From contig CAYMSV010000003.1 of the NCBI GenBank assembly GCA_964393205.1, forward strand, positions 1 to 32,607: a stretch of 32,607 nucleotides of DNA, given 5' to 3'. This document shows positions 1,835-4,262 of the stretch, piece after piece. Numbering within the stretch: position 1 is the stretch's first letter; the number at the start of each line of letters is the position of its first letter. The notes below the pieces were generated by a model. It worked only from the letters and a program-made list of their open reading frames with translations. It was not told where the DNA came from and ran no database searches. Made by a program: the position numbers and the translations under genes. This DNA comes from an uncultured Pseudomonadales bacterium (GTDB lineage: Bacteria > Patescibacteriota > Microgenomatia > UBA1400 > PJMF01).

Positions 1835-2552
1835 TTTAAACATTGAGGGAAATAAGCACCTTGATGATAAAATTTTACCTTTTTTTGTCAAAGAAAAAGC
1901 CGACGTTTTATGCCTGCAAGAAGTTTTTGCCAAAGATATTCAAAAAATTATGCAAGAAACAGGCTTGGATAAATACAGCTTTGTTTCACAAGCCAAGGTT
2001 ACCAAAGAAAATCCTCACCTTCCAGCCAATGGTTTATGGGGACTTTGTGTTTTTGCGAAAAACTTATCTAAAATACGCAAACACTATTACAATGGCAACG
2101 CCAATCAAATTCCAGAATTTTTTGCTTATCAAGACCCTAACTCGATGAATCGTTGTTTGCTAAGTTGTCAAACTGAGATTGATGGTGATATTTTTCAATT
2201 AGCCAGCACTCATTTTACTTGGTCTGGAGAAGGTAAAGTTAGCGATTTACAAAAAGAAAATTTTGCTAAACTTAAATCATTTTTAACTAAGTATCCAGAG
2301 ATGGTTTTTTGCGGTGATCTTAATACTCCGCGAGGCGAGAAAATTTATGATCAGTTGGCAGAGATATATACAGATAATATTCCCAGTAAGATTGATACTA
2401 CAGTGGACAAAAATATTCATAAATCTGGAAAAGATATTCGCTTAGTAATAGATGCTCTTTTTACCAGCCAACACTACAAGGTGAGCAAAGTAAAAGTAGT
2501 GGGTGGTGTTAGTGATCATAAGGCAATTGTAGCCGAAGTTAAGCGACAGTAA
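1821..2552 (+). CDS. Endonuclease/exonuclease/phosphatase (EEP) family protein
   Basis: Motifs MKIISLNIE, DVLCLQEV, THF, CGDLN, IDALF, SDHKAI; ATG at 1821 with GGAGAGG upstream. Confidence 0.9.
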   Translation: MKIISLNIEGNKHLDDKILPFFVKEKADVLCLQEVFAKDIQKIMQETGLDKYSFVSQAKVTKENPHLPANGLWGLCVFAKNLSKIRKHYYNGNANQIPEFFAYQDPNSMNRCLLSCQTEIDGDIFQLASTHFTWSGEGKVSDLQKENFAKLKSFLTKYPEMVFCGDLNTPRGEKIYDQLAEIYTDNIPSKIDTTVDKNIHKSGKDIRLVIDALFTSQHYKVSKVKVVGGVSDHKAIVAEVKRQ

Positions 2553-2633
2553 TTGTTTTGACTGGTATTTTTGTTTCTTTTTGATAAAATTCTATTATTG
2601 CTTAAATTTATTTAGGCAAAAGCTCATTTAAAA

Positions 2634-2705
2634 TCCCCTGTAGCTCAATGGCAGAGCAGGAAGCTGTTAACTTCAAGGTTGTAGGTTCGACTCCTACCGG
2701 GGGAG
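2634..2705 (+). tRNA. tRNA-Asn (GTT)
   Basis: Acceptor TCCCCTG/CGGGGGA, D arm GCTC-AATGGCA-GAGC, anticodon loop CTGTTAA, T arm GTAGG-TTCGACT-CCTAC; CCA not encoded. Confidence 0.96.
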
Positions 2706-2766
2706 CAATAAATTTTAAATAGACTGACAAATAAGTTTTTAATTACTCTTCATTTTAAGCTCTTAG

Positions 2767-2794
2767 TTGAAATAATAATATTATAGGATATAAT
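2767..2794 (+). promoter_or_regulatory. Sigma70-type promoter for the 2852 gene
   Basis: TTGAAA (2767-2772), 16-bp spacer, TATAAT (2789-2794); predicts a start near 2801. Confidence 0.6.
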
Positions 2795-2800
2795 ATTGAT

Positions 2801-3555
2801 AAGGTTTTTTTCTGGTCGTCGTTCTCGTCCTATAAAGGAAAAAGGAGTCTGATGAACAACGAAAGCAACTTAAAAATTAATGTTGGAAAAAGCGGGTGGC
2901 AACTTTCCTTCGAGCACGAAAATGAAGGAATTTGGGTTAAAATCCTGGATCTTATCAAAGATGAAGGATTAGATCCTGAAGCTATCAACTTTTGTCTTGC
3001 CAGGCCTGATGGGAAGTATTTCCATCTAACTATGGTAGAGGCACGTGTTTCTGGAAAAAATGGTGATCCTATAACTTTTCTACAGCCAATGCTTTTCGAG
3101 CATGATAACGGCAGCAAAGTGGGTGATGTATCCATTATATTCAGAAAAAATCCTTCAGGACGTTGGATGATCCAGACGGATCAAGAAGACGTCTATGAAG
3201 ATGAAACAACCATCAAAAAACTATGGAGAACGGTTCGAAGCTCGTTGGATAATATTATCCAATCGGTAAAAAAAACCGTTGTACATAGCGGTTGGATTTA
3301 TTCCAATGCTCGGCGAATTGGTGGGAAAGCAATTCAAACCCACTACGTAATTGCGGGGTGGAGTCCACAATTAGCTGAAAAAATGATGGATGTTTTTGAT
3401 TATATCCAGACCTTGGATTCGATGGGTCTAGCTTGCTTTGTGAAAGCATTGCAACATATGCCCAGCGAACCTGCTCGAGAAATTTTTGAGCAGATGAGAA
3501 TCCCGTTCGATAACGGCGATTCTGAGTAAAAGAGTTTGGCACCAGAAAAAACCTT
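2801..3555. repeat. Long-range inverted repeat bracketing the 2852-3529 ORF (arms 2801-2816 and 3541-3555)
   Basis: AAGGTTTTTTTCTGGT vs ACCAGAAAAAACCTT: 15 complementary bases with one bulged T; extendable on both sides with G-U pairs. Confidence 0.8.
2852..3529 (+). CDS. Hypothetical protein, distant NDP-hexose 2,3-dehydratase / Nudix-like fold
   Basis: 225-aa ORF with AAGGAG RBS; RPDGKYF...FLQPML...GDVSII...TVRSSLDN recalls the GxFF...WxQPII...TVQAT.SN pattern of that family. The family call is tentative. Confidence 0.6.
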   Translation: MNNESNLKINVGKSGWQLSFEHENEGIWVKILDLIKDEGLDPEAINFCLARPDGKYFHLTMVEARVSGKNGDPITFLQPMLFEHDNGSKVGDVSIIFRKNPSGRWMIQTDQEDVYEDETTIKKLWRTVRSSLDNIIQSVKKTVVHSGWIYSNARRIGGKAIQTHYVIAGWSPQLAEKMMDVFDYIQTLDSMGLACFVKALQHMPSEPAREIFEQMRIPFDNGDSE

Positions 3556-3562
3556 GTGTGGA

Positions 3563-3611
3563 GTCTGTTTGCATAGTGATCTCAAGCTGATCCTAGTTAG
3601 CGCGGATAGAC
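3563..3611 (+). other. Predicted structured RNA element in the 3' UTR
   Basis: GTCTGTTTGC (3563-3572) pairs with GCGGATAGAC (3602-3611), 10 bp including 3 G-U; encloses hairpin GCTGA-TCCTAG-TTAGC (3586-3601). Confidence 0.45.
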
Positions 3612-3623
3612 GAAACAAACCCT

Positions 3624-3651
3624 AGCCCCCTTTGAAAAAAGGGGGCTTTTT
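3624..3651 (+). terminator. Rho-independent terminator
   Basis: AGCCCCCTTT-GAAA-AAAGGGGGCT perfect 10-bp stem followed by TTTT. Confidence 0.9.
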
Positions 3652-3692
3652 CTAGATTGCTGCTAAGATTTAAATCTTGATATAATATTTTT

Positions 3693-4262
3693 ATGAGTAA
3701 GAAAGAAGAAAAACTTGAAAAATTAGACATAAAACTTTTTGAAAAACTTCATATTAAACAAAAAAATGAGGTTAAACTTTTACAATCCATATGTTTTACT
3801 AAGGTGAGTGAAGAAGAAGCTAGGGAAGATTTTTATCATCCAGAGTTAGCACAAGTCTTAGTTTATGCGGGAGAAAAATTGATTGCTTGGGCAGGAATAC
3901 ATGAAACAGAACAAAAATTTCAAGGAAAGAAAATAAAAATCGGTGGCTATGGTATTTGCACTCACCCAGATTGGCAAAGACAGGGAATAGCAAAAAAAGT
4001 TTCAAAAAGAGCTATGGATTTCTTAAAAAAAAGAGAAGTTGAGATTGGCTTTTTGTCTATAGACCCATTAAACAAAGTAAGTGTGAAATTACATCAAAAA
4101 AATGGTTTTGTGATGCTACCAAGAAAATTTTCTTGGACTAATTCTAAAGGAGAGCTTAAAACAGATTTTGGAGGAATGATAGCTCCCATTAATTCAGAAA
4201 AATTATTCGAATACGTTTTACATGGTTCAGAGATTTTTTATGTGGGAAATGGCTATTGGTAA
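3693..4262 (+). CDS. GNAT family N-acetyltransferase
   Basis: Acetyl-CoA motif A ICTHPDWQRQGIAKK, plus SVKLHQKNGF. Confidence 0.88.
   Translation: MSKKEEKLEKLDIKLFEKLHIKQKNEVKLLQSICFTKVSEEEAREDFYHPELAQVLVYAGEKLIAWAGIHETEQKFQGKKIKIGGYGICTHPDWQRQGIAKKVSKRAMDFLKKREVEIGFLSIDPLNKVSVKLHQKNGFVMLPRKFSWTNSKGELKTDFGGMIAPINSEKLFEYVLHGSEIFYVGNGYW

Follow-up and report, generated by a model that had tools for sequence, protein, structure and literature searches.

The window analysed here is a stretch of 32,607 nucleotides (contig CAYMSV010000003.1, assembly GCA_964393205.1) from an uncultured member of the Patescibacteria, and our subject is one small gene within it, along with a long-range helix, P1, that is predicted to join the 5' untranslated region (UTR) of its transcript to the 3' UTR. 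All features of the unit lie on the plus strand, and a tRNA-Asn gene (2634-2706) lies upstream of it. A sigma-70-type promoter occupies 2767-2794, with a -35 element TTGAAA (2767-2772), a 16-nt spacer, and a -10 element TATAAT (2789-2794), giving 11 of 12 consensus matches; its extended -10 region, ATTATAGGATATAAT, is also common to several homologous loci in the locus alignment. The Shine-Dalgarno (SD) sequence AAGGAG (2842-2847) is followed by an open reading frame (ORF) of 225 amino acids at 2852-3529 (start codon 2852-2854, stop codon TAA 3527-3529)—the sole long ORF of its stretch when 2400-4000 is read—whose product belongs to an orphan family with a predicted Nudix-like fold. An intrinsic terminator (3624-3652) consists of a 10-bp stem, AGCCCCCUUU/AAAGGGGGCU (3624-3647), and then UUUUU. 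The unit is a self-contained monocistronic gene, comprising a promoter, an mRNA of about 850 nt, and a terminator.

The two arms of P1 stand close to the ends of this message. The 5' arm (2799-2826) has a core at 2801-2816, AAGGTTTTTTTCTGGT, which begins six bases past the -10 element, at the predicted first transcribed bases, and an inner extension at 2818-2821 and 2824-2826. The 3' arm (3531-3557) starts 2 nt past the stop codon, with GAG (3532-3534) and UGGC (3537-3540) on the inner side, and has its core, ACCAGAAAAAACCTT (3541-3555), 11 nt past the stop TAA. An initial annotation of this DNA had drawn attention to the complementarity of the two cores, and all of its coordinates were confirmed on reading. 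ACCAGAAAAAACCTT complements AAGGTTTTTTTCTGGT except for one bulged U, there being 7 T in the 5' arm and 6 A in the 3' arm. When both flanks are given to RNAduplex, the window helix has 24 bp, 3 of them G-U, at -28.5 kcal/mol; this includes the inner pairs GUCG/UGGC and CUC/GAG, the same inward extensions as had been suggested earlier. Two bulges and one internal loop interrupt the 24 pairs, which span about two helical turns. P1 closes the minimum-energy fold of 2795-3655 and encloses the whole ORF, as anticipated, and the further structured element and terminator expected downstream are found as an extended hairpin at about 3557-3617 and the stem at 3624-3647 with its T run. In Rfam, only the tRNA reached its gathering score in the window, and 2700-3700 gave five matches of 15-17 bits, far under the cut-offs; the element has no Rfam family match, which fits its description as a new one.

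The 5' arm is also largely complementary to two sites inside the ORF, 3142-3155 (13/14) and 3206-3221 (13/16). These may be alternative partners during transcription or a mere reflection of the A run; they have no obvious counterpart in the other loci.

The ORF product has 20 homologues in a collection of 5.8 billion proteins, with 53% mean column identity, and their named sources are all Patescibacteria. Two of the loci, L005 and L007, come from bins labelled Gammaproteobacteria and Pseudomonadales, all other named sources being Patescibacteria; mis-binning or real transfer is possible. We compared 16 complete homologous loci, the window included, and one partial locus from genome and metagenome contigs, with L015 (identical to L002) and L019 (identical to L003) dropped as duplicates. 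The 16 loci correspond to perhaps 6-8 independent lineages, as L009/L010, L008/L012, L001/L011/L014, and L002/L013 are close. The alignments were not hand-curated, the loci are few and partly related, and the numbers of shuffles are small for the long folds.

DNA-level local alignments with equal mismatch penalties locate an inverted repeat at the homologous position in 15 of the 16 loci, and the complementarity is kept with compensatory changes—the behaviour in homologues that the initial annotation had made a test of its proposal. Arm pairs seen in the locus flanks include GGTTTGTTCTGG/CCTGAACAAACC, GCTTGTTCTGGC/GCCGGAACAAGC, GCTTATTCTGG/CCAGATAAGC, and GCTTGTCCTGGG/CCCAGGGACAAGC. Among the loci, the distance from the beginning of the 5' arm to the start codon is 44-55 nt; past the stop codon, the inner 3' arm sets in after 2-12 nt and the 3' arm ends after 12-40 nt. 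The contiguous complementary core in most homologues is 9-18 matched bases, and the helices contain bulges and internal loops. In 16/16 loci a -10-like hexamer is found 3-6 nt ahead of the 5' arm, and therefore the arm is the very 5' end of the predicted RNA; a -35 element with at least 5 of 6 matches is present in 11/16. A transcript starting at the first paired bases, as first proposed for the window, is thus predicted from the -10 position in every locus.

Partition functions for the full transcripts (751-841 nt) give 11.5-19.4 expected P1 pairs in 14 of the 16 loci, counted as pairs of the first 25 nt with the stretch directly past the stop codon; the window has the 19.4, and L016 and L001 have 6.1 and 3.2. 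The first 12 nt in these full-length ensembles have unpaired probabilities of 0.02-0.36. Cognate arms pair at -24.0 kcal/mol and non-cognate arms at -17.0 kcal/mol (permutation p 5e-5); therefore the arms are not merely two independently conserved motifs. P1 is also recovered unaided when RNAalifold is given whole transcripts as aligned by MAFFT, without editing; one column pair, for example, is U-A in 8 sequences and C-G in 6. Across 14 named column pairs, 74.8% of cells are paired vs 68.0% in shuffles, and 21 cells have changed on both sides vs 9.7 in shuffles, neither value being reached in any of 500 shuffles; when the 14-pair helix is slid to other registers, 36-59% of cells are paired.

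Strand asymmetry was examined because terminal inverted repeats in DNA would co-vary too. Read on the sense strand, transitions in the 5' arm give A·C and those in the 3' arm give G·U, and a DNA site predicts equal numbers of the two. The 14 fixed column pairs in 16 loci comprise 138 Watson-Crick cells, 25 G·U, 5 A·C, 50 other, and 6 gaps; the excess of G·U over A·C has a binomial p of 1.6e-4, although shared phylogeny means that the cells are not independent. Of the two possible duplexes, the sense one is stabler than the antisense one in 11/16 loci and less stable in 2, with 3 ties (Wilcoxon p 0.037), and a stricter local alignment has 8 wobble-type mismatches in sense vs 3 in antisense. A transition-tolerant DNA alignment, which gave 39 sense vs 53 antisense wobble-type mismatches, was set aside, as its stretches ran far past the helix into unrelated flanks. 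From these substitution patterns we conclude that P1 would act as sense-strand RNA, the choice between RNA helix and DNA repeat that had been made at the outset from wobble pairs in the window. Comparison of the loci shows this predicted helix, in which the first 15-25 nt of the RNA pair with sequence starting 2-12 nt past the stop codon, to have been kept across the gene family by sense-strand substitutions of compensatory and wobble type—as far as alignments can tell, a case of base pairing of a 5' UTR with the 3' UTR of the same transcript.

A second pairing lies beside P1, at the start codon. The anti-start segment UCGUCG (2816-2821) is predicted to pair with UGAUGA (2850-2855, including the start codon) in 5'-truncated transcripts, and in the full-length window fold its GUCG (2818-2821) pairs with UGGC (3537-3540) instead. 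In the window the expected pairs between the start region and the 5' UTR drop from 7.4 (truncated) to 1.4 (full length), because GUCG then joins inner P1. Across the loci, 13 of 16 5'-truncated transcripts have 4.8 or more expected pairs in the start-codon hairpin, and 10 of 16 full-length transcripts have 4.9 or more. The segment and the first codons change in matching ways: UGUCCA/UGGACA where the protein begins Met-Asp, GUUUCA/UGAAAC in L003 (Met-Lys), and GUCGU/GAUGA in the window, L005, and L011. This comparison shows a 5'-UTR segment beside the P1 arm that is predicted to pair with the start-codon region and that covaries with the first codons. The SD sequence itself lies in the loop between the anti-start segment and the start codon, with a predicted mean unpaired probability of 0.47 in the window; in the full-length ensembles of the loci the SD unpaired probability is 0.20-0.68 and the start codon is mostly paired (unpaired 0.00-0.67). 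No SD switch was seen between truncated and full-length RNA (mean unpaired 0.49 vs 0.47), nor any general SD sequestration.

The coding RNA enclosed by P1 is itself highly structured. With dinucleotide shuffles, the interval 2795-3655 has z -7.4 and the ORF alone z -5.7, nine control windows of equal length range from -1.8 to +1.5, and 15/15 homologous ORFs have negative z (-1.0 to -11.4), all of these being rough values from 8-12 shuffles each. When protein and codon usage are kept, the window ORF is 40.8 kcal/mol stabler than its shuffles (z -6.0), and the ORFs of L010, L014, L006, L004, and L011 are 20-40 kcal/mol stabler than theirs. As controls we used 36 ORFs of the same genome (4 neighbouring and 32 random, 190-250 amino acids), which range from 18.2 kcal/mol stabler to 14.9 less stable, with mean z -0.6; six of eight family members, at 20-41 kcal/mol below their own shuffles, surpass all 36. 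This comparison shows a coding region that has apparently been selected at synonymous sites for high structure. Selection seems to act on structuredness, or on folds particular to each lineage, with a conserved closing helix as the cap. A shared ORF-internal fold was considered and not established, RNAalifold on a MAFFT nucleotide alignment giving few pairs.

Two further observations concern the coding sequences. The most structured of the 32 random controls are G000 C1:102452-103147(-) and C1:104175-104864(-), with z -3.4 and -3.3 and about 18 kcal/mol. In two GC-richer homologues, an antisense ORF is the longest over the gene: L013 2878-3678(-), of 266 amino acids, and L016 2191-2946(-), of 251; antisense ORFs in the window reach only 95-101 amino acids, and the long ones are probably a by-product of composition.

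The hairpin at 3557-3617 (+) abuts the 3' arm and has an outer stem 3563-3572/3602-3611, an inner GAUC/GAUC, and an apical loop UCAAGCU. A similarly shaped hairpin stands next to the 3' arm in 12/16 loci, judged by eye from single-sequence folds, with AAGCU in the apical loop in 6/16; RNAalifold on an unedited MAFFT alignment of 8 sequences gave no consensus for it. Several homologues carry a third 3'-UTR domain past this hairpin (L009 at about 3660-3700, L010 at about 895-940, L013, and L002/L014). It is a long GC-closed hairpin, e.g. GGCCCCTTAGG...CTAAGGGGC, enclosing an inner hairpin CAGAYCACRTCTGATAAA, and the window has its plain terminator there.

Searches of the ORF product against Pfam, NCBIfam, PHROGs, PADLOC, and PDB sequences gave nothing significant, and the initial annotation had called the gene an orphan; its position beside a tRNA is incidental, as tRNA adjacency occurs in only 2 of 17 loci scanned (the window and L005). 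The homologues have 162-233 amino acids. An AlphaFold2 model of the window protein has a mean predicted local distance difference test (pLDDT) score of 75.8, is best at residues 100-220, and shows a mixed beta/alpha globular fold; the ESM Atlas has its own model, which is poor (pLDDT 0.39), with uninformative neighbours. VIA-align places the AlphaFold2 model closest to 3i9x (Z 10.1, root-mean-square deviation 4.0 over 126 aligned residues), and the 12 chains with Z of at least 8 are all Nudix-domain proteins; near-top matches are the MUTYH C-terminal domain, NrtR, and AraR. The top Foldseek matches are GDP-mannose hydrolase and ADP-ribose pyrophosphatase (E 3e-4). On these models a Nudix alpha/beta/alpha sandwich fold is suggested with middling strength. 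The Nudix box GX5EX7REUXEEXGU is not recognisable, the Pfam NUDIX model matching 0/20 family members at E <=1, and the helix in its position reads RSS[VL]DN[IV]xQ[AS]VKK in the alignment, by eye. Genes of the dTDP-rhamnose or nucleotide-sugar kind (NTP_transferase, RmlD, dTDP-sugar isomerase, 4,6-dehydratase) are neighbours of the gene in 7/16 loci (L002, L003, L004, L008, L009, L013, L014), and together with the Nudix-like fold, which has NDP-sugar hydrolases among its best matches, they hint at a role with nucleotide sugars.

The gene is patchily distributed: of 401 genomes sampled from the phylum 2 have it, as do none of 5 from the same genus, and no relative was found in viral contigs. Four same-genus genomes (L021-L024) share the upstream endonuclease/exonuclease/phosphatase-family gene and the tRNA-Asn at about 80% nucleotide identity; synteny stops at the 3' end of the tRNA (2706-2715), and the downstream DNA is different in each where the contig continues. 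The locus after tRNA-Asn is a variable one, without a recognisable integrase or att repeat among the ORFs scanned. A tRNA-linked island was considered for it and set aside, as the window holds no repeat of the tRNA 3' end and the ORFs scanned include no integrase. Further upstream, a 106-amino-acid ORF at 1514-1834, between rpoD and the phosphatase-family gene and overlapping the latter's start by about 30 nt, has only a faint match to sigma-70 region 4 (E 0.13).

What such a transcript might do depends on the RNases that it meets. Three relevant enzymes score above their family cut-offs in the genome, namely RNase III with 240 bits, RNase Y with 488 bits, and RNase J with 433 bits; RNase E/G was not found in this 99.5% complete genome. 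The 5' exonuclease of RNase J and the pyrophosphohydrolase step need a single-stranded 5' end. We propose that the transcript folds into a closed, compact particle in which P1 would leave no such end, and would shield the mRNA from 5'-end-dependent decay by RNase J or RNase Y. The compact ORF, with the paired start codon, would keep translation low; compactness of an ORF should in itself reduce translation, intrinsic ORF-wide structure having been found to correlate with translation efficiency (Burkhardt et al. 2017, PMC5318159). Because the inner 3' arm begins only 2-12 nt past the stop codon, it would come within reach of a terminating ribosome, which should therefore unwind some of P1, and the anti-start segment would have either the start codon or the inner 3' arm as its partner. 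Translation and the integrity of the 3' end would then probably be coupled to the stability and translatability of the message. A closed, compact mRNA, its paired 5' end shielded from RNase J/Y-type decay and its expression tuned by the fold, is the reading we lean towards and hold to be somewhat probable.

Other explanations of the arms begin with chance, that is, the complementarity of low-complexity T and A runs. For the window taken alone the pairing is only moderately unusual—3/200 mononucleotide shuffles of its flanks paired equally well—because the T/A run lowers arm complexity, and the near-complement of the 5' arm within the ORF (3142-3155) speaks for chance as well. The early warning that shuffled controls might match often was therefore apt for the window flanks; the alignment shuffles and slid controls were clearly worse than the true helix. 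Homologue arms without the T/A run, such as GCTTGTTCTGGC with GCCGGAACAAGC, still pair at the same place, and in the genome-wide scan that had been recommended for ORFs with complementary flanks, the gene ranks 1/774 (-28.5 vs a mean of -9.9 kcal/mol, standard deviation 3.8, among ORFs of its own genome of at least 100 amino acids); therefore the end-pairing architecture is not a general property of the genome. The next-ranked ORFs in that scan are G000 C1:290260-291921(-), C1:30578-32809(+), and C1:60498-61379(+), at -24.9 to -23.4 kcal/mol. The comparative sequence data already refute chance, which we find scarcely credible. The arms could instead act as DNA, either as terminal inverted repeats of a small mobile cassette or as recombination sites of an invertible gene segment. 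Such an element would suit an accessory gene in a site that differs among congeners, and repeats bound by one protein would co-vary as these arms do. It accords poorly with the strand-asymmetric mismatches (25 G·U vs 5 A·C), with a conserved promoter that lies outside the repeats yet forms part of the conserved unit, and with the lack of any att-like repetition of the tRNA end. The gene is single-copy, an exact match to either arm occurs nowhere else in the 897-kb genome, and no transposase, integrase, or invertase is found among the neighbouring ORFs scanned, so that neither the copies or transposase nor the unbiased mismatches of a transposable element with terminal inverted repeats, or of a miniature inverted-repeat transposable element, are seen. 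Contigs of four DNA runs held no joints, inversions, or deletions over 2300-4100, which is weak evidence, as contigs could miss rare variants. The sequence evidence already disfavours a DNA role, which we regard as very improbable.

If P1 is an RNA helix, it might serve as a processing stem, with RNase III cutting the 5'/3' duplex, trimming both message ends, and so maturing or inactivating the mRNA. RNase III is encoded, as noted, and the window helix has 24 pairs with small bulges over about two helical turns; the homologue cores, mostly 9-18 matched bases with bulges and internal loops, are short for a classical RNase III site. A precedent is the icaR mRNA, whose 5'/3'-UTR pairing makes an RNase III substrate (PMC3868564). 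The sequence carries no mark of a cleavage site, and processing leaves the ORF-wide structure and the start-codon hairpin unexplained; we think it unlikely, if worth keeping in view. P1 might also act as a translational licence, in which the anti-start segment blocks nascent or 3'-truncated RNA and full P1 frees it, or the reverse, a lock like those of hok and aapA1 that 3' trimming would release. The drop in start-region pairs in the window, with similar drops in L004, L006, L012, and L017, and the covariation of the anti-start segment with the first codons would suit such a switch, as does the behaviour of type I toxin mRNAs, in which the full-length fold controls translation and 3'-end processing with rearrangement makes the message translatable (PMC5416894). 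The start-codon hairpin, however, persists alongside P1 in 10/16 full-length transcripts, so the switch is not general; the protein is no small hydrophobic toxin (225 amino acids, predicted globular fold); and no antisense RNA gene was identified, a promoter scan showing only weak minus-strand sites and no comparative antisense search having been made. A licence of this kind seems to us a doubtful proposition.

A bolder idea, and in our estimate a long shot, is that the transcript is a functional RNA particle. Nudix-fold enzymes include RNA 5'-end pyrophosphohydrolases and decapping enzymes, and the Nudix-like protein could act on RNA 5' ends, whether the host's or an invader's, while the 5' end of its own mRNA is concealed in P1, making a self-immune single-gene accessory module; alternatively, the protein could bind at the junction of P1 and the 3' hairpin, forming an autoregulatory ribonucleoprotein.

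To return to the closed, shielded message that we prefer, several results weigh against it. The transcription start, the 3' end, and the helix in vivo are predictions, and the datasets listed as carrying the window sequence are sludge DNA metagenomes, with no RNA datasets among them. The stabilising effect is one that we infer from general knowledge of what RNase J, RNase Y, and RppH need. In the models the SD sequence is not generally sequestered, and strong translational silencing is not predicted. The helix is present only in interrupted form in L001 and is short in L016, and the kinship of the loci means that cell counts overstate their independence. Two of the eight ORFs examined with synonymous shuffles, L003 (z +0.2) and L008 (z -1.5), are not unusually structured, and the ORF-internal fold is not clearly conserved: its structure conservation index in a codon-aware alignment is 0.29, and its consensus energy has z -2.2 vs 40 column shuffles, one of them lower.

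The closest precedent for the inferred mechanism is the hbs mRNA of B. subtilis, in which a 14-bp interaction of the 5' UTR with the 3' UTR modulates cleavage by RNase Y (Braun, Durand, Condon 2017; PMC5737220). Both are cases of 5'/3'-UTR pairing in a monocistronic mRNA of an organism with RNase Y and RNase J, and in hbs the pairing affects how RNases reach the leader and links stability with translation. Unlike the 14-bp helix of that one gene, P1 engages the very 5' end, covaries across a divergent family, encloses a structure-selected ORF of 600-700 nt, and adjoins a start-codon hairpin and a 3' hairpin; it is known here computationally only. In S. aureus icaR the 3' UTR pairs with the SD region, a pairing that regulates expression and may give rise to a substrate for RNase III (Ruiz de los Mozos et al. 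2013; PMC3868564). P1 resembles it in being an intramolecular 5'/3'-UTR pairing; unlike in icaR, where the SD sequence is paired, here the SD sequence lies in a loop and the partner is the 5' terminus.

In rRNA precursors, RNase III processing stems flank a long enclosed RNA. The likeness is that sequences on both sides pair and enclose a whole functional RNA; the rRNA stems are longer and enclose non-coding rRNA, whereas P1 surrounds a translated ORF and has only a short core in many members. In hok, a 5'-3' long-distance interaction provides a fold-back lock. The type I toxin mRNAs (hok; aapA1, PMC5416894) share with our family a highly structured full-length mRNA and accessory, patchy genes. 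They encode peptides of about 30-50 amino acids and have an antisense RNA antitoxin, whereas this family encodes a Nudix-like-fold protein of 200-230 amino acids (225 in the window, 162-233 over all homologues), which is not a small hydrophobic peptide. In the full-length ensembles of this family the SD sequence has an unpaired probability of 0.20-0.68 and the start codon is mostly paired. By analogy, then, the P1 unit may work like the hbs and icaR interactions while recalling the hok/aapA1 fold-back. As for the coding region, non-random arrangement of synonymous codons gives very high structure in some coding sequences (Gebert et al. 2019, PMC6544989). That study and the one by Burkhardt et al. 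describe genome-wide trends; here one family is an extreme outlier in its own genome and is capped by a covarying helix. Open-access full text, without supplements, holds no description of the family, nor of a covarying ORF-enclosing helix in Patescibacteria.

[quoted passage not shown] As a cassette of about 850 nt, the unit is suited to testing the effect of a closed loop on RNase J/Y decay, RNase III processing, and translation. The analysis also brings to light a family of orphan proteins, predicted to have a Nudix-like fold and in many cases encoded near dTDP-sugar genes, in the Patescibacteria—a group whose RNA biology is almost unstudied.

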